Shown: positions 44,729 through 59,279 of the stretch, piece after piece | How positions within the stretch are numbered: position 1 is the first letter of the stretch | Layout: each line of letters starts with the position of its first letter | Assembly: GCA_946185535.1 (NCBI GenBank) | Contig: CAMHJX010000010.1 | Span: 18,492-82,491 of the forward strand | Length of the DNA: 64,000 bases | DNA from: an uncultured Bacteroidales bacterium | Lineage (GTDB): Bacteria; Bacteroidota; Bacteroidia; Bacteroidales; F082 | Direction of reading: 5' to 3' | The notes under the pieces: generated by a model | Database searches by the model: none | Seen by the model: the letters and a program-made list of their open reading frames with translations, nothing else | Told to the model about the DNA's origin: nothing | Translations under genes and position numbers: made by a program

Positions 44729-44768
44729 CCTCCCCATGAGCTGTTTGGCTTGTGGGGAGGATTTTTTA
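44729..44768 (+). terminator. Intrinsic terminator
   Basis: CCTCCCCA-N16-TGGGGAGG followed by ATTTTTTATT. Confidence 0.6.
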
Positions 44769-44809
44769 TTCACTTTATAACGTATTGTGGAGTTTGCTTT
44801 GTTTTTTTA

Positions 44810-44817
44810 TATCTTTG
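44810..44817 (+). promoter_or_regulatory. -7 box TATCTTTG for the type I R-M / defence operon
   Basis: TAnnTTTG match 31 nt upstream of the hsdM ATG at 44848. Confidence 0.5.
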
Positions 44818-44847
44818 CAGTTCAAACATCTATTTATAATAGAAACA

Positions 44848-46707
44848 ATGAACCAATCGCAATACAACCAACTGTTCTCGTTCATTTGGAACATCGCAAC
44901 GGACGTGTTGGTCTATGCCTTCGAGAAAGGCGAATATAAGAAGATCATAATGCCGATGATGGTGCTGCGTCGTATCGACGTGCTGCTGGAGCCTACCAAA
45001 GACCAGCTCCTGAAGCAGAAACAGATGCTCGACGACAACCACATCCAAAACCAAGACCCCATTCTTTACAACGTCACAGGCTATCCGTTCTACAACACCT
45101 CGAAGTTCACCATGAAGACGCTGAAGAGCGAGACCGACCCGCTGCGACTGAAGATGAACTTCATCGACTACCTGAACGGCTTCAGCAAGGACGTGCAGGA
45201 TATCATCGACAAGTTCCACCTGCGCCAGATGGTCGACAATCTCACCGAGGCGGAACGCCTGGGCAGCATCATCGAGAAGTTCACCGATGATAAAATCAAC
45301 CTCTCCAATAAGCCTGTGCTTGATGACGACGGCAAAGTTCGTCTTTCTGGTCTCGACAACCACACCATGGGCACCATCTTCGAAGAGCTGCTCCGTAGGT
45401 TCAACGAGGAAAACAACGTGACTGAGGCTGGTGAGCACTTTACGCCTCGCGACTATGTGAAGCTGCTGGCCGACCTTGCTTTGATGCCCGTTGCCGACAA
45501 GATAACCGACAACACCTACCATGTCTATGACGGCGCTTGTGGCACTGGTGGCATCCTCACCATCGCACAGGAGCGCATCAAAGAGATTGCTCAGGAGCGC
45601 GGCAAGCAGGTTCAAGTGAACATCTTTGGCCAAGAGCTGCAGCCCGATACTTTCGCCACCTGCAAGGCAGACTTGATGATTTCCGAAAACATCCGCTCAT
45701 TCCGTTACCAGCATGGCATGGAGCAGCGCGAATATATCGCTTTCGATAGCACCATTTCCCGCGATGGACATCCTGGTGAGACCTTCGACTTCTGCATCTC
45801 CAATCCTCCCTTCGGCACGCCTTGGAAGGAAGATCTGAAGAAGCGTGGTCTGGGTGAGAACGAGAAAAAGAAATTCACTGATAGTCGTTTCGTCATCATC
45901 GACAGTGAAGGCCATGAGATTTCCTTCATACCCGATATTGGCGACACTCAGATGCTGTTTTTGGCCAACAACCTTTCCCGTATGCGCGAGGATACCGCCC
46001 TTGGCACCCGTATCGTCGAAGTGCATAACGGCAGCAGTCTCTTCACGGGCGATGCAGGCAGCGGCCCCAGCAACTTGCGCCAATACATCATCGAAAACGA
46101 CCTGCTGGAGGCCATCGTGGCCATGCCAGAGAGGGATTTCTACAATGCTGGTATCGGCACCTATATTTGGGTCGTTACCAACCGTAAGGAGGACCGTCGC
46201 AAAGGCTATGTGCAACTCATCGACGCTACTGAAATCAAGACTCCGCTGCGTAAGAACCTGGGCGAAAAGAATTGTGAGACCAATGAGGCTGACCGCGCCC
46301 AGATTCTGAAGCTCCTCATGGACTTCAAGGAAACGCCCCAAAGCAGGATTTTCCCCAACAATGAGTTTGGCTATTGGAGCGTGAAGGTGTACCAGCTGCA
46401 ACGCGATGAACAAGGCAACATCGTGCGGGACAAGAAAGGCAAGCCCGTGATGGATAAGAAGTCCAAGGACACGGAAATCATACCTTTCCGTTATGAGGGC
46501 GGTATAGATGGCTTTTTCGAAAACGAAATCAAGCCCTACGCACCTGACGCATGGATTGACCCGCAAAGCATCGAAGTGGGCTACGAGCTTTCGTTTACTA
46601 AATACTTCTACAAACCCAAAGAGCTGCGCACCATTGCTGAAATCTCAAAGGACATCCGTGATATTGAGCAGCGCACCGATGGCATGTTGAACGAAATACT
46701 TGGGTGA
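44848..46707 (+). CDS. hsdM: Type I restriction-modification system, DNA methyltransferase subunit M
   Basis: From the ATG at 44848: MNQSQYNQLFSFIWNIATDVL (HsdM_N style), SAM motif VYDGACGTGGIL and catalytic FCISNPPFG. The track start at 44752 is a GTG inside the upstream terminator. Confidence 0.92.
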   Translation: MNQSQYNQLFSFIWNIATDVLVYAFEKGEYKKIIMPMMVLRRIDVLLEPTKDQLLKQKQMLDDNHIQNQDPILYNVTGYPFYNTSKFTMKTLKSETDPLRLKMNFIDYLNGFSKDVQDIIDKFHLRQMVDNLTEAERLGSIIEKFTDDKINLSNKPVLDDDGKVRLSGLDNHTMGTIFEELLRRFNEENNVTEAGEHFTPRDYVKLLADLALMPVADKITDNTYHVYDGACGTGGILTIAQERIKEIAQERGKQVQVNIFGQELQPDTFATCKADLMISENIRSFRYQHGMEQREYIAFDSTISRDGHPGETFDFCISNPPFGTPWKEDLKKRGLGENEKKKFTDSRFVIIDSEGHEISFIPDIGDTQMLFLANNLSRMREDTALGTRIVEVHNGSSLFTGDAGSGPSNLRQYIIENDLLEAIVAMPERDFYNAGIGTYIWVVTNRKEDRRKGYVQLIDATEIKTPLRKNLGEKNCETNEADRAQILKLLMDFKETPQSRIFPNNEFGYWSVKVYQLQRDEQGNIVRDKKGKPVMDKKSKDTEIIPFRYEGGIDGFFENEIKPYAPDAWIDPQSIEVGYELSFTKYFYKPKELRTIAEISKDIRDIEQRTDGMLNEILG

Positions 46708-48026
46708 GCATGGAGCGGTATAGTAAATATAAAGAAAGCGGCGTGTCATGGGTTGGCCAAATTCCCGAGCAATGGGAAATCAAACAATTACGCTCTTTCT
46801 TATCCCTGTTTTCGGAAAAAGGACACGGCGATGCTCAATTATTATCTGTTACGAGGGAGCAGGGCGTTATAGTTCGTGACAAAGATGACAAGGACGAAAA
46901 CCATAATTTTGTCCCTGATGATCTGAGTGGATATAAATACATCGAAAAAGGCGATTTTGCCATCAATAAGATGAAAGCATGGCAAGGCTCATACGCTGTA
47001 TCTTGCTTTGATGGCATTGTTAGTCCTGCATACTTCACTTGCAAGTTACGAGGAGTAGACAAAGAATTTTTCAGCAGAGCTATTCGCAGTAAAGCTTATG
47101 TCCCATTTTTTACACAATACTCAAAAGGAATTAGGGTTGGACAATGGGATTTAGACCCCAATGCCTTAAAGTCAATACCTTTCTTTCTTCCCCCACTTCC
47201 CGAGCAGCAAAAAATAGTCAGTTATCTTGAAAGCAAGACATCAAGTATTGATGCCTATGTTGCCGAAAAAGAGAAAGAACTTCAACTGCTTAACGAGCTA
47301 AAAGAGGCCGAAATAGCCAAAGTAGTAACACACGGATTGAATCCAAACTTAAAATTGAAAGACAGCGGTGTGTCTTTCATCGGTATGATACCTGAGCATT
47401 GGGAAGTAGAACCTTTTGGAAGGCACTTTACATTTGGTAAAGGATTGCCCATCACCAAAGCTGACTTGTTGCCAGAAGGTTTGGCAGTTATTAGTTATGG
47501 CCAAATCCATGCAAAAACAAATACTGGTGTTACAATGGATGAAAGTTTGGTACGACGAGTGTCACCTTCATATCTTGAATCTCATCCACAATACTTGTTG
47601 CATCAAGATGATTTCGTTTTTGCCGACACGTCAGAAGATTTGGAAGGCTCTGGAAATTTTGCTTTCAACGATTATGAGGATGACATCTTTGCCGGCTATC
47701 ATACTTTGGTAGCTAGACCAATCGACCTTCTTTGTCCAAAGTATTACGCTTATCTGTTCCAATCAACGAAATGGAAGAGCCAGGTACGCTCATTGGTCAA
47801 CGGTGTTAAGGTCTACACAATAAGTAAACGTATTTTGAAAAACTCATATATCCTTATCCCCACCATAAAAGAGCAACAAGAGATAGTGGCCTATGCAGAT
47901 GAAAAAACTGTCAAGGTTAATTCTCTCATTTCAGAATTAGTATCTGAGATAAACTACTTGAAAGAATACAAGCAACGCCTCATCGCCGACTGCGTTACAG
48001 GCCAAGTGAACGTGCAAAACATCTAA
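46704..48026 (+). CDS. hsdS: Type I R-M specificity subunit S (two target-recognition domains)
   Basis: W.GQIPE.WE.K.L opening, repeated at IGMIPEHWEVEPFG. Conserved central and C-terminal helices (LPPLPEQQKIVSYLE.., IPTIKEQQEIVAYAD..LKEYKQRLI). The GTG at 46704 overlaps the hsdM stop; an alternative ATG is at 46710. Confidence 0.9.
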   Translation: MSMERYSKYKESGVSWVGQIPEQWEIKQLRSFLSLFSEKGHGDAQLLSVTREQGVIVRDKDDKDENHNFVPDDLSGYKYIEKGDFAINKMKAWQGSYAVSCFDGIVSPAYFTCKLRGVDKEFFSRAIRSKAYVPFFTQYSKGIRVGQWDLDPNALKSIPFFLPPLPEQQKIVSYLESKTSSIDAYVAEKEKELQLLNELKEAEIAKVVTHGLNPNLKLKDSGVSFIGMIPEHWEVEPFGRHFTFGKGLPITKADLLPEGLAVISYGQIHAKTNTGVTMDESLVRRVSPSYLESHPQYLLHQDDFVFADTSEDLEGSGNFAFNDYEDDIFAGYHTLVARPIDLLCPKYYAYLFQSTKWKSQVRSLVNGVKVYTISKRILKNSYILIPTIKEQQEIVAYADEKTVKVNSLISELVSEINYLKEYKQRLIADCVTGQVNVQNI

Positions 48027-48038
48027 AACCGAGGAAAT

Positions 48039-50159
48039 ATGCGTGATGCAACCAAAATAAGCGATTACTTCTATGGGGCAAAGACCCTGTTTATCATCCC
48101 ACTTTATCAGCGCAAGTATGCCTGGCAGCAGAAGCACTGTGTGCGCCTCTTTGAAGACCTGAAGAAAATCCACAAGGAAAACATCTACAGCCACTTCTTC
48201 GGCAGCATCGTGTCAACCAAGGCCGACGAGCACGAAGACGACCTGCTTATCATCGATGGCCAGCAGCGTATCACTACGCTCTCGCTGCTCATCCTGGCTG
48301 GCCTCAATGCCGTGGCCAACGGCGACATGCAGAAAGGCGATGAGGACATTGAAGAGGTTCGCAAAAACTACCTCTATGCTGTCCGTCGCCGTGTCGACCG
48401 CCAAATCAAGTTGAGACCCATCGAAGGCGACATCGAAGCCTACGACGCTTTGTTCTCAAACAATCCTGATGAGTTTGTGAAGAACACTGGCATCACCTCC
48501 AACTATCTGTTGTTCTACCAGATGATCAAGGCAAGCGATTTAACCTTTACCGATTTGATTGAATCCATCGAAAAGCTCATCATCATCGACATCTGCCTTG
48601 ACTCAAAGGACAACCCACAGCTGATTTTCGAATCACTCAACTCTTGCGGCAAGGACTTGGAAGAAGCCGACAAGGTGCGTAACTATTTGCTCATGTCACT
48701 CACACCTTCCGAACAGGAAGAGTATTATCGTTCCTACTGGAGCAAGATTGAAAAACTGACAGACAATGAACCTACGATGTTTATCCGTGACTACCTGACA
48801 GTCGAAAACGGTGCCATCAGTAACATCGAGGAATTGTACTTCGATTTCAAGAAGTACGACGAAGAGAAGCACATCGTAAGACGTGATCTTCTTGAAAAGA
48901 TGCTGAAGTTTGCCCGCTACTACAGGCAAATTACCAACGGCGAGACGGGCAATGAGCGCATCGATAGAAAGCTGAAGCAGATTGCCAACATCGGCACCAC
49001 CGTCCACCTGCCTTTCTTCCTGGCATTCTTCGACTATGCAGATGCCAATGAGTTGGACGAAAACGAAAGGTATGAGGTGCTGGATGTGGTGGAAAACTAC
49101 TGGGCACGTCGTATCATCTGCAACTATCCGGCTAATGCCCTACAGAAGATGTTCTCAACGCTGCACACCGACATCATGAAGATATACAAGCGGCACGAGA
49201 AGAGAGAAATCGAATTGACGTTGCCTTATTCTCAACTCTTGAAATTTGTGCTGTTGAGGAAACAAGGTACAGCCTCGTTCCCCAACGATACCGAGGTGAA
49301 GGATATGTTCCCCACACGTCAGATCTACAGAATCCCCATTAGCTACCGATACTTCCTCTTCGAAAGGATGGAAAACGAAAACAGCCCCGAGGCCAACGAT
49401 ACCATCGTGCCTAAGATGCAATCGGGTGAGTTTACCATTGAGCACATCATGCCTCAAACGCTTACGTCTCAGTGGAAGCAAGAGCTTGGCGATGATTGGG
49501 AAAACATCTACGACACCTATCTGCACACCTTCGCCAACCTAACGCTGACGGGCTTCAATGCCTCCTACAGCAACCATTCCTTCATGGAGAAGAAAGAAGG
49601 CTACATTGACCGCAAGGGCAACAAGATTGACGGCTTCGATAACTCAGCCTTTCGTTTGTCGAACTACCTGAAACATTGCACAAAGTGGACCTTGGATGAA
49701 ATCAAGGAACGCCAAGAAATCCTCCTGAAGAACTTCCTCGACCTATGGCCAATGATTTCAACGGAGTATGTGCCACTCGAAAAAGAGTATGAGCTGGTCT
49801 CGTTCGACGATGACGAATATGAGCTGACCAATAGAAAGATATTAGGCTTCCGCTATCGCGACGAGCGACACTCAGTCATCACCTGGAAAGACATGCTCGT
49901 GCAAGTCTGCAAGCTCATGTATAACGAGAATCCTTCCACGATGACCTATGTGGCCACCAAGAATTTCTGGATGCATGAAGAGGGCAACAGAGACAGGTCA
50001 AAGATTGCAGAACGCTGCTATGTCCACTCTTCTTGTAGCACCTATACAAAGCAGAGTATTCTGAACTATCTGTTTAAGGAACTTGGCATTCCTTCCGGAG
50101 TGCTGGAGTTTGAAATTGCGCCGCTGGCCGACAAAGTAATAGACACTGATGATGAATAA
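48039..50159 (+). CDS. DUF262 + DUF1524 (GmrSD-like, type IV restriction-type) protein embedded between hsdS and hsdR
   Basis: N-terminus FIIPLYQRKYAWQQKHCVRLFEDL...IIDGQQRITTLSLL (DUF262/ParB-like). C-terminal His-Me-type block FTIEHIMPQTL...HTFANLTL (DUF1524). Confidence 0.85.
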   Translation: MRDATKISDYFYGAKTLFIIPLYQRKYAWQQKHCVRLFEDLKKIHKENIYSHFFGSIVSTKADEHEDDLLIIDGQQRITTLSLLILAGLNAVANGDMQKGDEDIEEVRKNYLYAVRRRVDRQIKLRPIEGDIEAYDALFSNNPDEFVKNTGITSNYLLFYQMIKASDLTFTDLIESIEKLIIIDICLDSKDNPQLIFESLNSCGKDLEEADKVRNYLLMSLTPSEQEEYYRSYWSKIEKLTDNEPTMFIRDYLTVENGAISNIEELYFDFKKYDEEKHIVRRDLLEKMLKFARYYRQITNGETGNERIDRKLKQIANIGTTVHLPFFLAFFDYADANELDENERYEVLDVVENYWARRIICNYPANALQKMFSTLHTDIMKIYKRHEKREIELTLPYSQLLKFVLLRKQGTASFPNDTEVKDMFPTRQIYRIPISYRYFLFERMENENSPEANDTIVPKMQSGEFTIEHIMPQTLTSQWKQELGDDWENIYDTYLHTFANLTLTGFNASYSNHSFMEKKEGYIDRKGNKIDGFDNSAFRLSNYLKHCTKWTLDEIKERQEILLKNFLDLWPMISTEYVPLEKEYELVSFDDDEYELTNRKILGFRYRDERHSVITWKDMLVQVCKLMYNENPSTMTYVATKNFWMHEEGNRDRSKIAERCYVHSSCSTYTKQSILNYLFKELGIPSGVLEFEIAPLADKVIDTDDE

Positions 50160-50170
50160 ACCACTTAGCT

Positions 50171-53100
50171 ATGCCAACAAATGTAAGTGAGAAACAACTT
50201 GAAACCATCCTCGTCAATTACCTGTGTAACGTACATCAATACGAACAGGGTGTTTCCGAAGACTATATCAAAGACTATGCGCTTGATACGGCGCGAGTGA
50301 AGCGCTTTCTGCTGGCCACCCAAAAGAATAAGGTGGAAAACACTGCCTGCTTCGCCAACGAGATTTCTGAAAGGAAATTCTTCACCGAACTCAACAAGCA
50401 GTTGGCTCAGCGTGGCGTCACCGATGTGCTACGCAAAGGTTTCCGCTTCATTTCGGAGCTTTTCGACATGTACTATCCGCTGCCGTCCGAACTGAATCCT
50501 ACGGCTCAGGAAATGTATGAAAAGAACATCTTCTGCGTCACCCGCCAGCTCTTCTACAGCAAGGAAAACCAAAACAGCATCGATGTGATGGTTTCCTTGA
50601 ACGGTATGCCGCTGATGACCTTGGAGCTGAAGAACCACTACACTGGCCAGACTGTGGAAAACGCCGTGAAGCAGTACCAGACCGACCGCGACCCTCGTGA
50701 CCCGCTACTGGCTCCCAAGCGTTGCGCCGTACACATGGCCGTCGACGACGACGACATCAAAATGTGTACCTGGCTCAGTGGCAAAAGCTCTTGGTTCCTG
50801 CCTTTCAATAAAGGCGTGAACGGTGGCGCAGGCAACCCCATCAATCCCAACGGTGTAAAAACCGCCTATCTTTGGGAAGAAGTGTTGGAAAAGCACTCGC
50901 TTTCCGACATCATCGAGAACTATGCCCAGGTGGTGAAGAAACTCGACCCCAAAACCAACGTCGAGAAACAGAGTGTGGTTTGGCCCCGCTACCATCAGCT
51001 CGACTGCGTTCGCAAGCTTCTCGCCGAGACCAAGGCGCACGGGGTAGGTCAACGTTTCTTGATCCAGCATTCTGCTGGCTCGGGCAAGTCCAACTCCATC
51101 ACTTGGCTCGCTTATCAGCTCGTCGGCTTGCTCGACGGCACACAAGCCTTGCTCGATAGCGTCGTTGTCGTCACCGACCGCGTCAACCTCGACAACCAGA
51201 TAAAGAACAACATCGTAGCTTTCAAGCGGCTGCAGAACTTGGTGGCTTGGGCTGACAGTGCCGAGGCGCTGCGCAACCACCTCAGCAGCGGCAAGAAAAT
51301 AATCATCACCATCGTCCACAAGTTCCCCTACATACTGGAAGCCATCGGCGGTGAGCTGAAACACAAGCGTTTCGGCATCATCATCGACGAGGCTCACAGC
51401 AGTCAAAGTGGCTCACTCTCAGCCAAGATGAATATTGCGCTGAGCGGAAACGCTGGTGAGGATGAAATGGATCTGGAAGACCGCTTGACGGCCATCATCG
51501 AAGGCCGCAAGATGGTACCCAACGCCAACTACTATGCCTTCACCGCAACACCCAAGAATAAGACCCTTGAAATGTTCGGCACGCCTTTCCAGCAGCCCAC
51601 CGGGGAAATCGGCCACAAGCCTTTCCACGAGTACACCATGAAGCAAGCCATCGAAGAGGGCTTCATCATGGATGTGTTGGAACACTACACCACCTACACC
51701 AGCCTCTATAAGATTGTGAAAGCCATCGAGGAGGATCCCGTGTTTGACAAGAAAGAGGCTCAGAAGAAACTCCGCGCTTTTGTCGAAGGCCAACCCGAGA
51801 CCATCCAACAGAAAGCCAACATCATCGTTGAGCATTTCCACACGCAAGTCATCGACAAAGGCAAGGTCGGCGGTCAAGCCCGTGCAATGGTGGTCACAAG
51901 CAGCATCCTTCGCGCCATTGAGTTCTATTACGAGATTTCTCGCCTGCTCAAAGAGCGCAAGAGTCCCTACAAGGCCATCGTCGCCTTCTCAGGCTCGAAG
52001 AACTATGGCGGCAAGGAAGTGACCGAAGCCGATGTCAACGGATTTCCCTCGAAAGACATTGAGGAAAATATGGAACACGACCCGTACCGCATCCTCGTGG
52101 TGGCCGACAAGTTCCAAACCGGCTACGACCAACCTCTTTTGCACACCATGTATGTAGATAAGATCTTGACCGATGTGAAGGCCGTTCAGACGCTTTCGCG
52201 CCTGAACCGCTGCCACCCAAAGAAACGCGACACCTTCGTCCTCGATTTCGCCAACGAAGCGGAGGACATTCAGGCTGCTTTCCAGCGTTTCTATAAGACC
52301 ACCATCCTTTCACGTGAGACCGACCCCAACAAGCTCAACGACCTGCTGACGCAGATAGAGGAAGCCAACATCTACACCGAAGAAGAGGTGCGTCTGCTGA
52401 ACGAAAAGTATTGGGGTGGTGCATCGCGTGAAGAAATAGACCCAATAGTGAATGAGGCCGTAGAACGTTTCAAGCAGCTGGACGACAATGATAAGATTAT
52501 CTGCAAGAGCAGTATGCGTGGCTTTCTGCGTACCTATCCCTTCATTGCTGCGGTAATGCCTTACAAGAGCCTTGAATGGGAAATGCTTGAAACCTATTTC
52601 TCACTCCTCATCCACAAACTGCCAGTCCTGAAGGGAGAAGATTTCACCGAAGGCCTTATTGAGGCAATCGACTTCGATAAATATCGCTTGATTAAAAACG
52701 AGGAGAAAAAGATACAGCTGGAGAACCAGGACACCGAGATAGATCCTATCCCTGTCGGCAAAACCCAGGGCAATAAAGAGCCTGAGCTTGCAAAACTCAG
52801 CGACATCCTTGATGAATGGAACAACCTGCACTTCTCCAACATGGAGAAAGCGAAGGAGCAGCTGGAAGAGCTGCCTCAGCGTTTACAGGCCGATGCCACC
52901 TTCATCAATGCTGCCCGCAACAGCAACCGCGAGACCGCCATGCAGCAATGCGCTGCATCCCTGATGATGATTGTTGCCGGCATGTTGAACGAAAACACCG
53001 AGTTCTGCCGCTACTATCTTGACAACCCCGACTTCATGAACGCCATCAACCTGCGTGTCTTCGATACCGTCTACAGCAGTTTAGGTTCAAGCCCCTGGGT

Positions 53101-53179
53101 TGCAAGCGACACTCCCCTCAGCTATGGTTACACTCCCAGCAGTAATGTCCCTATGGCAGCAGAAAATCCTCCTAGCTAA
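50171..53179 (+). CDS. hsdR: Type I restriction endonuclease subunit R
   Basis: 1002 aa. N-terminal PD-(D/E)xK region (IDVMVSLNGMPLMTLELKN). SF2 helicase motifs HSAGSGKSNSI, VVVVTDRVNLD, IIIDEAHSSQSG, FTATP and VADKFQTGYDQP. Confidence 0.92.
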   Translation: MPTNVSEKQLETILVNYLCNVHQYEQGVSEDYIKDYALDTARVKRFLLATQKNKVENTACFANEISERKFFTELNKQLAQRGVTDVLRKGFRFISELFDMYYPLPSELNPTAQEMYEKNIFCVTRQLFYSKENQNSIDVMVSLNGMPLMTLELKNHYTGQTVENAVKQYQTDRDPRDPLLAPKRCAVHMAVDDDDIKMCTWLSGKSSWFLPFNKGVNGGAGNPINPNGVKTAYLWEEVLEKHSLSDIIENYAQVVKKLDPKTNVEKQSVVWPRYHQLDCVRKLLAETKAHGVGQRFLIQHSAGSGKSNSITWLAYQLVGLLDGTQALLDSVVVVTDRVNLDNQIKNNIVAFKRLQNLVAWADSAEALRNHLSSGKKIIITIVHKFPYILEAIGGELKHKRFGIIIDEAHSSQSGSLSAKMNIALSGNAGEDEMDLEDRLTAIIEGRKMVPNANYYAFTATPKNKTLEMFGTPFQQPTGEIGHKPFHEYTMKQAIEEGFIMDVLEHYTTYTSLYKIVKAIEEDPVFDKKEAQKKLRAFVEGQPETIQQKANIIVEHFHTQVIDKGKVGGQARAMVVTSSILRAIEFYYEISRLLKERKSPYKAIVAFSGSKNYGGKEVTEADVNGFPSKDIEENMEHDPYRILVVADKFQTGYDQPLLHTMYVDKILTDVKAVQTLSRLNRCHPKKRDTFVLDFANEAEDIQAAFQRFYKTTILSRETDPNKLNDLLTQIEEANIYTEEEVRLLNEKYWGGASREEIDPIVNEAVERFKQLDDNDKIICKSSMRGFLRTYPFIAAVMPYKSLEWEMLETYFSLLIHKLPVLKGEDFTEGLIEAIDFDKYRLIKNEEKKIQLENQDTEIDPIPVGKTQGNKEPELAKLSDILDEWNNLHFSNMEKAKEQLEELPQRLQADATFINAARNSNRETAMQQCAASLMMIVAGMLNENTEFCRYYLDNPDFMNAINLRVFDTVYSSLGSSPWVASDTPLSYGYTPSSNVPMAAENPPS

Positions 53180-53230
53180 CCAATTAAACAATGATTACAA
53201 CAGTAATTATCTAATCAAAAATAAATACTC

Positions 53231-53773
53231 ATGGACGAAAACGAAAACATTGAACCCGTCATCACTTATAAAGAGATGTTTGATTTAGCCCTTGGTGAAA
53301 CCATTGAACCTGTTACTAATGAAAAACAATTGAATGACATCTTACACAGTGAAAGCTTTGAATTGACAATTCGTGCTTTAGGTGACAGAAATCCTTATTT
53401 TGCACGTCACGTTTTTAGGCACCATGATATAATGACCATAATTCATAAGTTTTGTGAAATAACCAACCATGTAGAAAAAACCTTTGAGTCACACATCAGG
53501 GAAACGTATGATGTGTCCCTTGAAGAGTACGAAAAACTCTTTGGTGAAAGCATCGATGTTGCTAAAATGGAATACTATGGTGACTATCTCATAGAAGAAG
53601 AGCCTCTGCCGATTAGCTATGATGTTATTATCGATGTTTTGAATGACTCAAATATCAAAATAACACCTGAACAAGACGAGAAACTTCAAAAGCAATTAAG
53701 TCCCTTCACCGATGAGGAGTGTGAGGACCTCATCAAGCGTTGCCGTCAAGCCCCAGAACTGTTTGGCTGGTAA
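53231..53773 (+). CDS. Hypothetical highly acidic 180-aa protein (AT-rich cassette gene 1)
   Basis: Clean ATG ORF 51 nt after hsdR. Strong Asp/Glu excess, no recognisable motif. Confidence 0.5.
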   Translation: MDENENIEPVITYKEMFDLALGETIEPVTNEKQLNDILHSESFELTIRALGDRNPYFARHVFRHHDIMTIIHKFCEITNHVEKTFESHIRETYDVSLEEYEKLFGESIDVAKMEYYGDYLIEEEPLPISYDVIIDVLNDSNIKITPEQDEKLQKQLSPFTDEECEDLIKRCRQAPELFGW

Positions 53774-53797
53774 AAACACTCTAGATAATCAATAGCA

Positions 53798-54310
53798 ATG
53801 TTACAAGATATGGTTATTCCTGAATGGCTGACAGCAGTTATTTGTGTTATTGTTGGTGCTCTATTGACATTCATAGCTACAATGATAGTGAATCGGGTGT
53901 CTTATAGAAACGAATACTACAAGATGATTATTGAGAAACGCATAAAAGCATACAATAATGTAGAACGTCTCTTGTATTCTATTAAATCCGAATCTCTAAA
54001 ATGCTTATTAAAAATGCATGTGTTAAGGGATGCGAATGCGCTAAAGTCATTGAAACTAGAGATTAAGAAGGTAAAAGATGATTCTGTTTGGTTGTCAGAG
54101 AAAATGAAAGTCGCAGTATCTTCTTTGATAAATGCCATTTATTCGTTTGAAGAAAAACCAATTGAGAATTTGACAGCTAATGATACCAAAAACCTGTCTG
54201 ATGAAATCAAAGCAATGGGATTGGTAATTGAAGATATATTGGTAGAGGATTTAAAGTCATTGCATAAGGTTAGACGGTTTTTAAGAAATAAACAAGTAAT
54301 AAAAGAATAG
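53798..54310 (+). CDS. Hypothetical single-pass membrane protein (AT-rich cassette gene 2)
   Basis: N-terminal TM helix WLTAVICVIVGALLTFIATMIV, then a helical K/E-rich domain. It ends 9 nt before the AbiH-like gene. Confidence 0.5.
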   Translation: MLQDMVIPEWLTAVICVIVGALLTFIATMIVNRVSYRNEYYKMIIEKRIKAYNNVERLLYSIKSESLKCLLKMHVLRDANALKSLKLEIKKVKDDSVWLSEKMKVAVSSLINAIYSFEEKPIENLTANDTKNLSDEIKAMGLVIEDILVEDLKSLHKVRRFLRNKQVIKE

Positions 54311-54319
54311 GTTAGATTT

Positions 54320-55603
54320 ATGAATAGAATTATTCTAATTGGGAACGGCTTTGATAAAGCTCACGGGTTGCTTACGGGATATGATGACTTCATAAACTGG
54401 TATTGGAATAAAAGAGTTTCGGAATTAAAAACTGAGCTGTCAAATGCGACCAGTGATATTCTTTGTACTTTAGAGATTAACTCTGAGCATTTTAAGACTT
54501 GGAGTTTGTATTTCTTTTATCATGGGCATGAATTAAAAGCTTTAACAGGTGAAGAGATAATAAAGGGGTTTAGTGAAGTTAAAACTCATTTCCGAGTTAC
54601 AAAATCCTACTTTTTTTCTAGAATTCTTCACTCATATCATGAAAAAGGATGGGTAGATATTGAAAACGAATATTATAGATTGTTATTTCCCTCTGCCGTG
54701 AATGGGCCTTCCCCGTACAATGACAAACCAAGTGAGTTGAATGAGCAATTGGAATATGTTCGAAGTCTTTTGATAGAGTACCTGAATACTATACAAAAGG
54801 AAAAGATAAATGAATCAATTGTCAAACAAAGCATCAAAGAAAAGTTTTATTCATGTTTTAAACCGAATGATATTTCAATTAGTGCAATGCCAAAATGGAA
54901 TGAATTTGTTAGAGGGAGATGTCGTTTTGATTCGAATATAAGATTTTATGATGAATCTGATTGGGATGAATTGTTAGACGCTTATGATGTAAAAGATAAA
55001 GACTATATTAAGACGGAAAACAAACAGTTTATTAATTCATATAGGGAACAAGTTGGGAATAAGGGAATAGAATCAATCGTAAAGAATGATTTCCCCAAGC
55101 ATTTCTTGCTGCCAGATAGGATTATGCTATTGAACTTTAATTATTCAAACACCGCAGATCTTTATCTGCGTAAAGACGAAAGATTTGTAGTAAATCATAT
55201 TCATGGCAATTTGAATGAACCAGATAGCGTGATTTTTGGATATGGAGATGAATTAGATGAGAATTATAAAATAATGTCGGAGAAAAATGATAATGAGTAT
55301 TTGCGCAATATCAAGTCTGTCAAATATTTGGAATCTCCTAATTATCGCAATCTGCTTGAGTTCATAGAATCTTCGTCTTATCAGATTTTAATTATGGGAC
55401 ATTCTTGTGGCAATTCGGACAGAACCTTGCTTAACACTTTGTTTGAACATAGGAATTGCGTCTCCATTAAACCGTTTTATCATGTATTTGATGAAGGCAA
55501 GGACAACTATATGGATTTGGTTCAGAACATTTCCCGAAACTTCACCGATATGAAATTGATGCGCGATAGGGTGGTGAACAAGACTTTCTGCGAAACGATA
55601 TAA
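54320..55603 (+). CDS. AbiH-family abortive-infection-like protein (AT-rich cassette gene 3)
   Basis: N-terminus MNRIILIGNGFDKAHGLLTGYDDF matches the AbiH signature (IGNGFDLAHGL.T.Y.DF). C-terminal ILIMGHSCGNSDRTLL matches the second AbiH block (GHSL...D). Confidence 0.75.
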   Translation: MNRIILIGNGFDKAHGLLTGYDDFINWYWNKRVSELKTELSNATSDILCTLEINSEHFKTWSLYFFYHGHELKALTGEEIIKGFSEVKTHFRVTKSYFFSRILHSYHEKGWVDIENEYYRLLFPSAVNGPSPYNDKPSELNEQLEYVRSLLIEYLNTIQKEKINESIVKQSIKEKFYSCFKPNDISISAMPKWNEFVRGRCRFDSNIRFYDESDWDELLDAYDVKDKDYIKTENKQFINSYREQVGNKGIESIVKNDFPKHFLLPDRIMLLNFNYSNTADLYLRKDERFVVNHIHGNLNEPDSVIFGYGDELDENYKIMSEKNDNEYLRNIKSVKYLESPNYRNLLEFIESSSYQILIMGHSCGNSDRTLLNTLFEHRNCVSIKPFYHVFDEGKDNYMDLVQNISRNFTDMKLMRDRVVNKTFCETI

Positions 55604-55638
55604 TAACTTTCTTTGCCCCAACAAAACACTACACACCC

Positions 55639-56766
55639 ATGTCCCAAGACACTAATATCAACAACAATTTTCCCACCTTCAAGCCCTCTGAACTCATCGC
55701 CATCTTCAGCGCGGCATTAGGCCGTCAGAACGAGTTTGCCAAACTTGTCAGCCTGCGTGGTATCTACCAGCAACGACAAAACAACCCCAATTGGTCATAC
55801 GCCTATGCAGGGCTGCACGACGAGTCCTCGCAAGATGAAATCACGTTGCGCATAGCCAAGGATCTCTATGAGACCCTCATTGATGGGAACCTGATTACAG
55901 TGACAGGCATCCTCGAACGCAAAATCGACCCACGCGGTAGCGTGCAGATCACACTTAATGTGACCCGTGTGGAGAAGTTGCAAGAACAGGCCGTCAGCCT
56001 CGCCGACCAGAAGAAGGCCGAGCTGCGGCGTCACAAATCCCAGACAGGCTTCCGCAACGTGGATGGTGTGCTGGAAAAGCGTCTGCTAGCCGACGAGCGC
56101 CCACGCGTGGCCTTGCTGCTTGCCAACAACTCCATCACCATGTCGGACTTCGAGGCGGGCATACAAGCCGCCAAAACCGCTATCGACTTCACCGAGTTCC
56201 GCTCTGACTTCTTCAAGGCGGCACCGCTGTGCCAACGCCTTTGCGAAATCGACGCACAGAGCTTTGATGTTATCGCCGTGGTGCGTGGCGGAGGCATCGG
56301 CATCGAACGCCTCGACAATCTTGAAGTGTTGGAGACTTTGAGCCACCTTACTACTCCTGTCATCTCCGCCGTGGGTCACCCCGAAGAAAGGCTTACCTTT
56401 AAGGAAATTGCTGATAAGGAAGTGGCCACTCCCACGGCCTTGGGACAGTATCTCAACGAGCTGGTGGAACGCGTGGCCGACATGAAGGCTAAATCGAAGG
56501 CACTGTTGGTGCAGCAGGTGAGCAAGCAATATGCCGACCAGATTGCCAGCCTTGAGAAGCGGCTGACGAAACAAGAGAAGGACTTCAAGGAAGAGCGTGC
56601 AGGTTACGTGGAAAGGGAGAAACGCAACGTGGAGGAGATGGCCAACATGAAGAACAAGGTCGCTTGGATGGCCAACAAGCTCAATGAACGCAAGAGAACC
56701 ATCACCCTGCTGGCAGTGGGACTTGTGGCGGCTGTGGGTGTCATGATTTGGATTGCTTTACGGTGA
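55639..56766 (+). CDS. Exonuclease VII large-subunit (XseA)-like protein with C-terminal coiled coil and transmembrane anchor
   Basis: OB-fold-like N-domain (LVSLRGIYQQ...ITVTGILERKIDPRGSVQITLNVTRVE). Catalytic-domain blocks RVALLLANNSITMSDF, DVIAVVRGGGIGIERLDNLEV and PVISAVGHPEERLTFKEIADKEVATPTA. Long coiled coil, then ITLLAVGLVAAVGVMIWIAL at the extreme C-terminus. Confidence 0.6.
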   Translation: MSQDTNINNNFPTFKPSELIAIFSAALGRQNEFAKLVSLRGIYQQRQNNPNWSYAYAGLHDESSQDEITLRIAKDLYETLIDGNLITVTGILERKIDPRGSVQITLNVTRVEKLQEQAVSLADQKKAELRRHKSQTGFRNVDGVLEKRLLADERPRVALLLANNSITMSDFEAGIQAAKTAIDFTEFRSDFFKAAPLCQRLCEIDAQSFDVIAVVRGGGIGIERLDNLEVLETLSHLTTPVISAVGHPEERLTFKEIADKEVATPTALGQYLNELVERVADMKAKSKALLVQQVSKQYADQIASLEKRLTKQEKDFKEERAGYVEREKRNVEEMANMKNKVAWMANKLNERKRTITLLAVGLVAAVGVMIWIALR

Positions 56767-56789
56767 TTGTTGAGGTGGCATGGCTGCTG

Positions 56790-57115
56790 GAGCCAAGTCC
56801 CAAAGGGACGACCCCACCACACCCCGATATGTAATGTCGGGTTTTTATATTGAAAAGGGCGGATTCTTGTATGCCGCAGTCATAGATGCCCGCCAGCACA
56901 CAAGCCAGCGTCGGTATGACATGGCTGCTTGACCCTAACTCACCCCGATATGCAATGTCGGGTTTTCATGATAAGACGGATGACAATGATATTCCGCAGC
57001 CATAGATCCCAAGCCATCGCACATGCCAGCGTTGGGATGACATGGCTGCTGAATTCTGCCGCAGCCACAGATGCCAGCCGCCGCACTTGCCCATGCTGGC
57101 ATGACATGGCTGCTG
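56790..57115. repeat. Cluster of composite hairpin repeats (REP half-site, 2x CCCCGATATGCAATGTCGGGTTTT, 3x GCCGCAGCC..GACATGGCTGC)
   Basis: Copies at 56795-56846, 56873-56928, 56941-56966, 56994-57049 and 57059-57113. The track ORFs here (56929..57261, 56935..57156) are repeat read-through. Confidence 0.8.
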
Positions 57116-57164
57116 GAACTTCGCCTAAGGATGACCTTCTTTCTAAACTGCCACAACAGCCCTC

Positions 57165-58064
57165 TCAGATTACTTGTCCCAGTAGCAAGCCCTTGTCCAA
57201 TCCCATCTTGCTGAAGGCAAAAAGTTTCCTTCCCAAGTCCTTGAGTGATGCACCCAGATGATAGACTTGGCTGTCGATGATAAGGAATCGGTCGTGCACG
57301 CGTGTGCGTGTGGCTTTTAGCTCGGTCTTACGACCGGTCTGCACAAGGCAATCGGACTGGAGCACCAATAGGGTAGGGATGATTCGCTCCACAAAAATGG
57401 TCGCTTCCACGCCGTCGTTTCGGCATTCAAGGATGTCGAAGTCCGAAGCGTCAATGTAATTGTCGATGAGGATGACCTCCTGATGCGCCGTCTTTATCAA
57501 GTTTTCGGCAAACAGGCGTGCGTCGAGAACCTGACCTTCGAACAACACACCTTCAACAGGCGGCAGATTGGTACGGATGAAGAAGTCTATCTTTTCTGAA
57601 TGGAGGTCGGTTTTTTCTTCCAATAGACGAATCCTGTTGCTTTGTTCGTCAAAACGTGCATCCAACTGCATTTGAAAAGCCTGTAGTTGCTGCCTAACGG
57701 CATAACCGCGGAGCAAGTATTCTTTCAAAACCTGATTGGCCCATCGGCGGAACGCTGTTGCATTGATGCTATTGACGCGATAGCCTACAGACAATATCGC
57801 GTCAAGGTTATAGAATTTGGTGGAGTACATTTGTTTTCCGTCGTTACCCATAAGTTCCAAAATGGAACATGTGCTGTTTTCTTCCAGTTCGCCACTAGAA
57901 TAGATGTTCTTTAGGTGCTTTGTGATGGCGGGTCTTTTTGTTCCGAACAGGTCGGCAATTTGTTGCTGTGTAAGCCAAACGGAATCCTCTTGTACCCGCA
58001 CTTCAAGCTTGACCATCTCGTTTGGTTGATAAAGCACAATCTCGTTTTCTTTTCTTGTTTCCAT
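57165..58064 (-). CDS. RhuM-family (virulence/DNA-binding) protein
   Basis: EIVLYQPNEMVKLEVRVQEDSVWLTQQQIADLFG...FYNLDAILSVGYRVNSINATAFRRWANQVLKEYLLRGYA is the characteristic RhuM N-terminal region. Confidence 0.8.
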   Translation of the reverse strand: METRKENEIVLYQPNEMVKLEVRVQEDSVWLTQQQIADLFGTKRPAITKHLKNIYSSGELEENSTCSILELMGNDGKQMYSTKFYNLDAILSVGYRVNSINATAFRRWANQVLKEYLLRGYAVRQQLQAFQMQLDARFDEQSNRIRLLEEKTDLHSEKIDFFIRTNLPPVEGVLFEGQVLDARLFAENLIKTAHQEVILIDNYIDASDFDILECRNDGVEATIFVERIIPTLLVLQSDCLVQTGRKTELKATRTRVHDRFLIIDSQVYHLGASLKDLGRKLFAFSKMGLDKGLLLGQVI

Positions 58065-58160
58065 AATACAATTAGTTTTACGCTACAAAGATGCAACCCT
58101 TGTCAAGATATACCCGTTGAATAAACGTTTGTAGTCGACAGTAGTCGTTTGCTGTCGGGT
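58065..58160 (-). promoter_or_regulatory. Conserved upstream module, copy C
   Basis: The minus strand reads ACCCGACAGCAAACGACTACTGTCGACTACAAACGTTTATTCAACGGGTATATCTTGACAAGGGTTGCATCTTTGTAG...ATG. Confidence 0.6.
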
Positions 58161-58397
58161 AAGTAATTGGGAATGAAATGGATGGTTTTTTTTGGAAATA
58201 AATCTTACATCAATCTGTCATAAATGGATCGATTCGTCGTTCCTCCTCGCGATGACGCGAAGCGACGACGAGGGTTTAGTCCTCTGGCGGTGTAAGGATG
58301 GCGGATCCCTGTCCGCCATGACGGCAAGGGGCGGGGGTGTTGTCCGTTGTCGTGTTGTTTTCTGTCCTTGTGCCGTGTGCGGGAATGCCTATGATCG

Positions 58398-58561
58398 ACC
58401 GGGTAGGGTGCGCGGGCCTGGCCGACATGGGGGAGGGGCGCTCGCTATGTGCGTAGGGCCCATGATGTCGGCCTTGAATTTTTGGTCCTTTTGTTTCAAG
58501 ACAAAAGGACGGAAATAAATGGCCGCAGCCGCACCTGCCCATGCAGGCATGACATGGCTGC
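58398..58561. repeat. ~160-bp composite multi-hairpin repeat, copy 1
   Basis: ACCGGGTAGGGTGCGCGGGCCTGGCCGACATGG...CATGATGTCGGCC...GGTCCTTTTGTTTCAAGACAAAAGGAC...GGCCGCAGCC..GACATGGCTGC. It is paralogous to 59591-59752. Confidence 0.8.
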
Positions 58562-58633
58562 TAAAGCCTCAGTAAAAATAGAAATATCATCCATCCCCTT
58601 GCGGGTTTGTGGAAAAGTTGTATTTTTGCAGCG

Positions 58634-58701
58634 AGAAATACCGGTCAGGGGCTGCGTTCCAAACTTCGGGGAGGTAACGGATTACATGACCGGTTTTTTT
58701 T
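58634..58701 (+). ncRNA. Candidate ~65-nt sRNA (promoter + hairpin + U-tract), convergent with ORF 58828..59166
   Basis: GGAAAAGTTGTATTTTTGCAG (-7 box 58621-58628), then stem ACCGGTCA (58640-58647) / TGACCGGT (58687-58694) followed by T8. The T-tract lies only on the + strand side. Confidence 0.3.
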
Positions 58702-58827
58702 ATTGCACCTCAATCTTGTTCACGCAGTATTGGACATGCTTTCCGCCAGTCATAACACCAATGGTGAGTTTTACTACAAAATCCAAATAATCTTTTTCCT
58801 CATTCACGAAGTGATGATACAATAAAA

Positions 58828-59166
58828 TCATGTTTTGTATCCATTACGCTTTTGTTCACCTTCTTTCCGTGAAACGAATAAAGGTTGTCCTTCCAATGGC
58901 TTCGCCTCTTCAATGACTGTTCTCAAATGCTTCACTGCATACGTGGATTTCCAATTGTGCAAAGCCTCACGAGCCGTCTTTTTGTCGCTTTCATTTCTTA
59001 CAATATAGATGTCCGCATTTAAAAACTTGTTTTTCACCGCATTGGGTAGTCCTTTACGCTGTAATTGTTTCCATAGTGTTTCATAATAGCCCATAATCAA
59101 CGTAAAACGTTCTTTGCTCCTCTTCTTTTCTGTCGGGATGCCTTCAATGTATTCTGGTGTTTCCAT
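58828..59166 (-). CDS. Hypothetical 112-aa basic protein (possible polyvalent-protein/PBECR-like module)
   Basis: Clean ATG ORF preceded by conserved upstream module copy B. LPNAVKNKFLNADIYIVRNESDKKTAREALHNWKSTYAVKHL has no motif I can assign firmly. Confidence 0.4.
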   Translation of the reverse strand: METPEYIEGIPTEKKRSKERFTLIMGYYETLWKQLQRKGLPNAVKNKFLNADIYIVRNESDKKTAREALHNWKSTYAVKHLRTVIEEAKPLEGQPLFVSRKEGEQKRNGYKT

Positions 59167-59279
59167 ATTAAAGTGGTTTTAATTATTTTGAATGCAAAGA
59201 AACATCATTTGTCAAATCCTATCCGTTGAACAAACGTTTGTAGTCGACTGTAGTCGTTTGCTGTCGTTTGCTGTCGGGT
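59167..59279 (-). promoter_or_regulatory. Conserved upstream module, copy B
   Basis: The minus strand reads ACCCGACAGCAAACGACAGCAAACGACTACAGTCGACTACAAACGTTTGTTCAACGGATAGGATTTGACAAATGATGTTTCTTTGCATTC...ATG. Confidence 0.6.

Follow-up and report, generated by a model that had tools for sequence, protein, structure and literature searches.

Downstream of hsdR in a type I restriction-modification (R-M) operon of an uncultured Bacteroidales bacterium (contig CAMHJX010000010.1) lie three open reading frames, here ORF1, ORF2 and ORF3, the last of which is assigned by profile search to the AbiH family of defence proteins. The window, to which all coordinates refer unless a comparison locus is named, is the whole stretch of DNA analysed, 64 kb in length; related loci carry L numbers. 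The gene order is hsdM-hsdS-gmrSD-hsdR-ORF1-ORF2-abiH, followed by an XseA-like gene, with intergenic spacers of 51 nucleotides (nt) from the hsdR stop to ORF1, 24 nt between ORF1 and ORF2, and 9 nt between ORF2 and ORF3. The first-pass annotation, made from the sequence alone, had placed the three ORFs after hsdR with these same 24- and 9-nt spacers, as the ORF list confirms, and had proposed that they form a separately acquired cassette encoding a multi-component variant of AbiH. The analysis described here retains part of that proposal, in that ORF2 and AbiH recur as neighbours, and replaces the rest with a slot of variable content. The features of the locus are as follows, with transmembrane abbreviated as TM and AF2 denoting AlphaFold2.

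44752..46707, + strand: hsdM, first gene of the cargo-carrying type I R-M operon (ORF; 90-94% nt identity to Pfam-annotated HsdM, with HsdM_N and N6_Mtase, in L091 and L096)
46704..48026, + strand: hsdS, specificity subunit (ORF; finds Methylase_S genes in related loci)
48039..50159, + strand: GmrSD-type (type IV) restriction gene, between hsdS and hsdR (Pfam GmrSD_N and GmrSD_C; PADLOC Orf5 and HEC-06 models, up to 453 bits)
50171..53179, + strand: hsdR (Pfam HSDR_N, SWI2_SNF2, ResIII, T1R_D3-like)
53231..53773, + strand: ORF1, acidic protein of 180 residues, all-alpha in its AF2 model (6 homologue clusters)
53771..53808, no strand: left recombination junction of the ORF2-AbiH module (blastn breakpoints against L165-L168, L081 and L085)
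53798..54310, + strand: ORF2, basic single-TM protein of 170 residues (12 close clusters; hydropathy and charge)
54320..55603, + strand: ORF3, AbiH-family, SIR2-like predicted effector of 427 residues (PF14253, 94.2 bits)
55639..56766, + strand: XseA-like gene, divergent, with a C-terminal TM segment; conserved right flank of the slot (Pfam Exonuc_VII_L, 55.7 bits)
56823..56841, + strand: terminator-like hairpin, the first on this strand after hsdR, within a repeated intergenic element of about 120 nt (terminator scan; repeat search)

The base composition of the region is distinct from that of its flanks. The guanine-plus-cytosine (GC) content is 0.31-0.39 over about 53200-55600, compared with 0.50-0.58 in hsdR and the XseA-like gene, and the three-ORF segment, at 0.342, is the lowest 2.4-kb stretch of the window (mean 0.48, standard deviation 0.032); sliding windows that are as AT-rich amount to 0.16% and all overlap the segment. 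The sharp drop in composition noted at first inspection is, accordingly, borne out by windowed GC values. The same tendency holds for every cargo gene seen in this position in related loci, with GC values of 0.32-0.41 compared with 0.46-0.53 for hsdR. Together with the breakpoints described below, these values support the view, also taken in the first-pass annotation, that the AT-rich DNA was acquired separately, being foreign to its flanks and part of a variable region.

Nucleotide comparisons locate the edges of the exchanged pieces. Four metagenomic contigs (L165-L168) are 97.5-98% identical to the window from 51951, inside hsdR, to 53771, beyond which genes for a 135-residue EVE-like protein and a KAP-NTPase-like protein replace ORF2 and AbiH. 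The hsdR of the window is also found in L096 (95.7% nt identity), where AbiH follows directly and alone, and in L091 (94% nt identity), where it is followed by an ORF1-like gene (48% identity), PDC-M15A, PDC-M15B and a REase-ARP nuclease; one hsdR is, in other words, present with three downstream arrangements, i.e. AbiH alone (L096), an ORF1-like gene with PDC-M15 (L091), and ORF1 with ORF2 and AbiH (the window). By blastn, the hsdR homology between the window and L091 or L096 stops near 53090, the last ~90 nt of hsdR forming a variable tail that encodes the protein end ...VPMAAENPPS. Homology of the window to L081 runs from 53145, which is 35 nt before the hsdR stop, to 53770-53771, and that to L085 starts at 53808, the latter tract comprising ORF2 and the first ~240 nt of AbiH only. 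Because the arrangements vary after hsdR and before the conserved XseA-like gene, the AT-rich segment can be regarded as the content of a fast-turnover slot.

The right-hand edge of the slot is equally well defined. Across L169-L173 the XseA-like gene keeps 92-97% identity, whether or not AbiH precedes it, the homology starting at 55659, and the genes upstream of it in these loci are either unrelated or AbiH variants of 51-68% identity; in related metagenome-assembled genomes it is always the right border of the variable defence slot. The XseA-like gene was considered as a fourth component of the system and rejected, since it is conserved at 92-97% beside unrelated upstream genes in L169, L170, L172 and L174, and is also absent from 84 other loci.

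At the left-hand edge, HsdR proteins of different type I families share the sequence [GP]-M-A-A-E-[NPD] within their last 5-20 residues. The motif is present in the window (53140-53179), L081, L096, L098, L016, L040 and L059, with LAAE in L091, and in the window it marks the exact point at which nucleotide homology to L081 sets in. The shared HsdR tail motif could be a docking tag, a degradation tag or a recombination joint.

The common strand, the 24- and 9-nt spacers and the shared low GC content of the three ORFs, and the acidity of ORF1, recognised in the first-pass annotation (isoelectric point, pI, 4.47; net charge -24), are all compatible with the original proposal of a single three-component AbiH variant, made up of ORF1, ORF2 and ORF3, with ORF1 as a DNA mimic or regulator. 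However, strains that are 98% identical in hsdR and ORF1 carry other genes after ORF1, and the junction falls at the truncated 3' end of ORF1 itself. ORF1 of the window ends in FGW, lacking 11 C-terminal residues found in all full-length homologues, and is full-length in L165-L168 (191 residues); on this comparison the 11 codons were apparently lost at the recombination junction. ORF1 homologues are rare (6 clusters only, in 5.8 billion proteins), and those found elsewhere precede PDC-M15A and PDC-M15B: in L081-84 a 90% identical ORF1 lies behind a different hsdR and is followed by PDC-M15A, PDC-M15B (Pfam PM0109) and a REase-ARP/PDDEXK_13 nuclease. The ORF1-headed PDC-M15 cargo sets lie at the following positions.

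L081, 8001-10969: ORF1-headed PDC-M15 cargo set
L091, 7001-9912: ORF1-headed PDC-M15 cargo set

The PADLOC definition of PDC-M15 does not include ORF1. No ORF1 homologue was found in ~90 AbiH-containing loci, nor at the other ORF2-AbiH loci. Since ORF1 is adjacent to hsdR in all contexts found, it is a constant first gene after hsdR, preceding at least three different cargos and, judging from gene content, not part of the AbiH unit.

The proposal that ORF1 is a DNA mimic is likewise unsupported. Its AF2 model (predicted local distance difference test, pLDDT, 76) is all-alpha and has no significant Foldseek match in the PDB or in BFVD (best E 1.6 and 1.8, respectively), with no known DNA mimic among the matches listed; searches of Pfam, NCBIfam and PADLOC gave no match, and that of PHROGs gave two chance-level matches only (E 0.24 and 0.37). 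The window ORF1 is itself strongly acidic, but the charge is far weaker in its more distant homologues (net -9 to -12 at 47-49% identity), and these searches gave no fold or sequence similarity to a known DNA mimic of the Ocr or ArdA kind. The comparative data already appear largely to refute the three-gene proposal, which we consider most improbable.

The assignment of ORF3, by contrast with that of ORF1, is in accord with the first-pass annotation. ORF3 matches the Pfam AbiH hidden Markov model, PF14253, with 94.2 bits (gathering cut-off 30.9, E 1.8e-26) over profile positions 1-255 of 260; the same family is matched by 46 of 46 aligned relatives, and the database proteins that ORF3 finds with E <= 1e-10 number more than 7,350. 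The PADLOC AbiH model (PDLC02345) gives 26.6 bits, over residues 3-60 only. Both motif blocks previously noted, IGNGFDKAHGLLTGYDDF and MGHSCGNSD, are present, with IGNGFDKAHG at residues 7-16 and MGHSCGNSD at residues 359-367. Residues G8-N9-G10-F11-D12, N274 (in NFNY), H295-G296 (in HIHG) and G360-H361-S362...D367 are invariant in the 46 relatives. GNGFD presumably fits an NAD-binding loop and, on our reading, the G-x-S-x-x-x-D arrangement of ORF3 fits the SIR2_2-type pattern; N274 and H295 are candidates for the catalytic Asn and His, by analogy to SIR2_2 motifs and not by superposition.

Knowledge of AbiH, which protects dairy bacteria, dates back to 1996; no member of the family is known to have NADase activity. 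The first-pass statement that the mechanism is not established still holds experimentally, but the family had already been assigned as SIR2-like: AbiH is placed in a SIR2-like 'SIRim' group, and NAD+ depletion is suggested for it, with the stress that the mechanism is unknown (bioRxiv 10.1101/2024.09.18.613514; PMC13064643). The AF2 model of ORF3 (pLDDT 86; predicted TM-score, pTM, 0.84) is consistent with this placement, in that nearly all of its top 20 Foldseek matches in the PDB, though weak, are defence SIR2 proteins, e.g. SIR2-HerA (8sub) and DSR2 (8wkt); the Pfam SIR2_2 match of ORF3 is likewise weak, with E 0.038. Weak Lipase_3 matches in 8 of the 46 relatives (E >= 0.027) raised an alpha/beta-hydrolase (lipase) reading of GHSCG; this was discounted as coincidence, because the structural matches are SIR2 proteins and G-x-S-x-x-x-D fits SIR2_2. 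On the model and motifs, ORF3 is probably a sirtuin-like, NAD+-consuming abortive-infection effector.

From the pattern of identities along its length, the AbiH gene of the window itself appears to be a mosaic. Residues ~40-90 of ORF3 (window 54440-54590) are hypervariable, with 22-34% identity to relatives that are otherwise 65-69% identical, and have 53-68% identity to the AbiH remnant of L085, which accompanies the closest (72% identical) ORF2 homologue. Over its C-terminal 170 residues, taken as the final 170 columns of the alignment, ORF3 has 80-97% identity to L095 and L096, neither of which has ORF2. The hypervariable segment may be a specificity region, a partner-contact region or a mere recombination tract.

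ORF2 is basic (pI 9.2), with the single hydrophobic N-terminal segment previously described, here a TM helix at about residues 8-30, followed by a C-terminal domain of ~135 residues; by the positive-inside rule it is predicted to be N-out with the C-terminal domain cytoplasmic. The loci carrying its close homologues (12 clusters) were surveyed as ten locus groups, window included, with the following result.

ORF2 intact, AbiH 4-17 nt downstream (7 groups): window, L086-88, L089, L092-94, L179, L180, L181
ORF2 intact, 5' AbiH remnant only (2 groups): L085 (93 residues), L185/L186 (49 residues)
ORF2 with nonsense codon, no AbiH, i.e. decayed (1 group): L184
Coordinates of the decayed pairs: L085, 7511-7885; L185, 1718-1870; L186, 986-1147; L184, 4866-5360

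AbiH, or a remnant of it, is hence downstream of ORF2 in 9 of the 10 groups. The ORF2 homologues in the AbiH-linked loci have 40-72% identity and the AbiH proteins identities down to about 48%; the pair follows hsdR or hsdS in all seven ORF2 loci with a visible upstream region, and the type I R-M systems concerned belong to two or more families. Co-occurrence with AbiH, which had been put forward as a check on both upstream genes, is found for ORF2 homologues and not for those of ORF1, none of which lies beside AbiH elsewhere. What stands of the multi-component proposal is the coupling of a single-TM protein to AbiH in a narrow lineage; the breakpoint at 53771 and the contexts of ORF1 speak against the cassette of three genes. 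In the reverse direction, all 80 AbiH homologues from species-representative genomes are without ORF2. The comparison suggests that ORF2 is a lineage-specific partner of AbiH and that the linkage is one-directional. In a neighbour-joining tree the window AbiH groups with ORF2-less genes; the ORF2-positive L086, L089 and L092 make up a clade of their own.

Two further observations concern the loci with ORF2. Decay of the pair starts with AbiH, ORF2 being kept beside an AbiH stub of 49-93 residues in three loci. In L086 (8786-9886, - strand), and also in L087, L088 and L092-94, a convergent DUF4268 gene lies after AbiH (PADLOC PDC-S11, 456 bits) and is a further recurrent neighbour at the type I R-M tails of the ORF2-positive clade.

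Beyond its close homologues, ORF2 belongs to a much larger superfamily that matches no Pfam or PADLOC family. A profile of the ORF2 homologues collects 486 representative clusters (at 50% identity) with E <= 1e-3, and 113 with E <= 1e-10. The members mostly have 160-230 residues, typically about 180; a hydrophobic stretch at the N terminus is present in every one inspected, and the motifs that they have in common are Y-Y-K-x-[IV]-[IL]-x-[KR]-R-x-x-A-Y, LWLS and D-[ML]-x-x-L-H-x-V-x-x-F-L; one member, P0174 (377 residues), has a C-terminal extension. A scan of genomes with a degenerate DNA motif gave 60 members, from Bacteroidota, Proteobacteria, Acidobacteriota, Negativicutes and others (the superfamily material comprises L100-L164 and proteins P0139-P0285). 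None of the 60 has AbiH beside it and no conserved partner was found among their heterogeneous neighbours; a general link of the superfamily to AbiH, or to any conserved neighbour, was rejected on this evidence.

The location of AbiH next to type I R-M genes is not peculiar to the window. The 79 immediate upstream neighbours of AbiH homologues include 11 HsdR, 4 HsdM and 4 HsdS (19/79), in addition to 3 YhcG/DUF1016 proteins and 3 other DNA methylases, and the gap to the upstream gene is often -47 to +15 nt; about three quarters of the homologues have an upstream neighbour other than HsdR, HsdM or HsdS. In L081 and L096, YhcG/DUF1016 proteins are also encoded within the type I operon. From this gene order, AbiH genes of this clade appear to be habitually attached to the tails of type I R-M operons. 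Defence genes embedded in such operons are known, e.g. PrrC and TgvAB, and have been sought by 'guilt-by-embedding' (PMC12707154; PMC11411939; bioRxiv 10.1101/2024.01.29.577857). In the window, a terminator scan found no + strand terminator-like hairpin from 52800 to 56822, such that read-through from the hsd genes into the cargo is plausible; a sigma-70 promoter scan gave no excess over shuffled expectation, the model being ill-suited to Bacteroidales promoters.

The explanation that best accommodates these results, and which we consider reasonably probable, is that of a variable slot between the hsdR 3' end and the XseA-like gene, in which ORF1 and an ORF2-AbiH module are independently assorting pieces, the module comprising a sirtuin-like effector and an accessory. 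The host of the slot would be a type I R-M operon of rumen or gut Bacteroidales; the first piece would be ORF1, located after hsdR and before whatever cargo follows, and the second the two-gene module of ORF2 and ORF3, probably co-transcribed with hsdM-hsdS-gmrSD-hsdR. On phage infection, AbiH would consume NAD+ (or ADP-ribosylate a target) via the GNGFD loop, Asn274 and His295, and its firing would halt phage production in the infected cell. ORF2, confined to a small Bacteroidales lineage, would act there as an accessory anchored in the membrane; because most AbiH genes work without it, its role would be to modulate or localise AbiH rather than an essential one. The combination of restriction and AbiH would constitute a layered defence, with AbiH possibly acting as a back-up upon restriction failure.

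Several observations weigh against this explanation. With respect to the chemistry, the Foldseek matches of ORF3 are weak (best E 0.04, TM-score ~0.3, none at E <= 0.001), SIR2_2 is matched by only 3 of the 46 relatives, and weakly, and a profile of the AbiH clade gave chance helical matches only when compared with PDB sequences. With respect to the R-M enzyme, the attachment may have arisen because the site is a hot spot for insertion, and not for functional reasons, the slot taking many unrelated genes. With respect to ORF2, the AbiH genes most similar to ORF3 (65-69% identity: L095, L096, L098/99 and L171) are intact and have no ORF2; no AbiH residues track the presence of ORF2 (zero diagnostic columns); ORF2 is intact in three loci, from two locus groups, in which AbiH is truncated; and the 60 wider superfamily members are solitary, with unrelated neighbours. 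Because of these four observations, ORF2 could act alone.

It is on the same observations that an alternative can be built, namely that ORF2 and AbiH each have a single-gene function independent of the other, the two being co-captured in a recombination hot spot and inherited as a block, with ORF2 having a membrane-level role of its own, as would the solitary members of its superfamily. In lactic acid bacteria, AbiH has been proven to work as a single-gene system (PMC12322248; PMC13064643), the Lactococcus lactis and Streptococcus thermophilus proteins protecting when cloned as a single gene (PMC12322248), and the tract shared with L085 is exactly what simple linkage would yield. However, the adjacency is kept in the ORF2 clade even between homologues with no more than 40% identity in ORF2 and about 48% in AbiH, with spacers of 4-17 nt in every locus, after hsdR or hsdS, and across R-M families. 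Since it persists over such divergence although the content of the slot is otherwise rapidly replaced, pure hitch-hiking is not expected, and we regard two independent functions as somewhat unlikely.

The tight coupling of a small upstream gene to a larger, predicted toxic enzyme is also reminiscent of a toxin-antitoxin pair, in which ORF2 would neutralise or sequester a toxic AbiH at the membrane. The decayed loci, which lose AbiH and keep ORF2, show the order of loss that such a pair tolerates. The wider distribution of AbiH is, however, difficult to reconcile with an antitoxin role: intact AbiH genes without ORF2 are the rule, the closest relatives included, such that AbiH is presumably not lethal without ORF2. 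A toxin-antitoxin relationship is, in our view, very improbable.

A different possibility is a functional link, of the kind known for PrrC and EcoprrI, that connects AbiH (alone or together with ORF2) to the type I R-M enzyme, the R-M complex keeping AbiH silent until phage anti-restriction proteins disable restriction, whereupon AbiH would fire; ORF1 is a possible adaptor in such an arrangement. The strong enrichment of type I subunits immediately 5' of AbiH homologues, in many cases overlapping them or separated by almost no gap, the recurrence of this adjacency in several R-M families, and the lack of a terminator between hsdR and the cargo are all in keeping with a guardian function, for which PrrC and PARIS are precedents (PMC12707154). 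But AbiH is indifferent to whether hsdR, hsdM or hsdS is upstream, and most homologues, as noted, have a neighbour of another kind; the L. lactis and S. thermophilus proteins protect when cloned alone (PMC12322248); and the slot also takes unrelated cargo, which fits the general pattern of embedding in R-M operons (bioRxiv 10.1101/2024.01.29.577857). There is no homology to PrrC, and no PrrC/RloC domains (ABC-ATPase and anticodon nuclease) were found in ORF1-3 in searches of Pfam, NCBIfam and PADLOC. A direct wiring of AbiH to the R-M enzyme consequently appears unlikely.

Comparison with characterised systems indicates both familiar and unfamiliar aspects of the proposed slot with its ORF2-AbiH module. 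The AbiH prototype has 346 residues. ORF3 resembles AbiH of L. lactis and S. thermophilus in its PF14253 match, N-terminal GNGFD and C-terminal GHSxG..D, and is likewise in a defence context, but is about 80 residues longer, with extra helical segments between residues of about 40-260 in the AF2 model. It also differs in its occurrence in Bacteroidales, at the tail of a type I R-M operon and preceded by a small membrane protein, whereas the prototype is a stand-alone gene on an integrative and conjugative element (PMC13064643). The predicted Rossmann-type core of ORF3 has defence SIR2 NADases, a group including DSR2, SIR2-HerA/Nezha and ThsA, as its best structural matches, and ORF3 carries a conserved Gly-rich loop and candidate Asn and His residues; by contrast with them it has no HerA, SLOG, pAgo or large sensor domain, and the structural match is weak, as given above. 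We know of no SIR2 system for which a 170-residue single-TM partner has been described.

With respect to its location, the window cargo is like PrrC/EcoprrI, TgvAB (of Vibrio VPI-2) and the PDC/HEC candidates in being co-directional and tightly spaced in or at the end of an hsd operon, and, as with TgvAB and HEC-06, the operon also embeds GmrSD (PMC11411939; bioRxiv 10.1101/2024.01.29.577857; PMC12707154). It has, however, no sequence relation to PrrC or TgvAB, and is appended after hsdR rather than located between subunits. PDC-M15, a two-gene PADLOC candidate, uses the same slot, after an ORF1-like gene, both in L091, with hsdR as in the window, and in L081, with a different hsdR; its proteins are unrelated to ORF2 and ORF3, and show only that ORF1 is shared between cargos. 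The GmrSD gene of the window, of the modification-dependent type IV class, is embedded between hsdS and hsdR, the GmrSD-hsdR order being common to L085.

The surroundings of the slot contain further features. The XseA-like protein scores 60.7 bits against TIGR00237, far under the cut-off of 180. Just downstream, a RhuM/Bro-N-like gene (57165-58064, - strand; PADLOC candidate PDC-S05, 358 bits), kept in L169 and L171, is another marker of the defence island. Families of intergenic repeats, ~60-160 nt in length, are located at 56803-57117, 58381-58565 and 59431-59774; several carry a CCCGATATG..CGGG hairpin followed by a T-run, and repeats of these families also border the slot in L081, L091, L095, L096, L098 and L171. 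These repeats (56803-59774) have no Rfam match, and an Rfam scan of 52000-60000 found no RNA family; they look like a repetitive extragenic palindromic (REP) or miniature inverted-repeat transposable element (MITE) type of element of this Bacteroidales group.

The results do not overturn current ideas, since both the SIR2-like character of AbiH and the presence of defence genes embedded within R-M operons have been published. They do point to a large Bacteroidales clade of AbiH proteins, with its more than 7,350 matches to ORF3, that is apparently habitually located on type I restriction operons, to ORF1 as a gene marking the start of the cargo slot, and to a widespread unannotated family of single-TM proteins behind ORF2, present in many phyla. 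A more far-reaching version, in which ORF2 and AbiH together constitute a genuine membrane-coupled sirtuin system of two components, tied to the state of the type I enzyme, and ORF1 is an HsdR-tail adaptor for interchangeable effector cassettes (AbiH, PDC-M15, EVE/KAP), is quite improbable at present; if true, it would imply a modular architecture of a restriction enzyme plus a plug-in suicide effector. Irrespective of this, ORF2 provides a concrete handle on the control or localisation of a sirtuin-like effector, and the occurrence of one hsdR with AbiH alone, with ORF2 and AbiH, or with other cargo provides a natural comparison set, which could be used to test whether embedded effectors cooperate with restriction.

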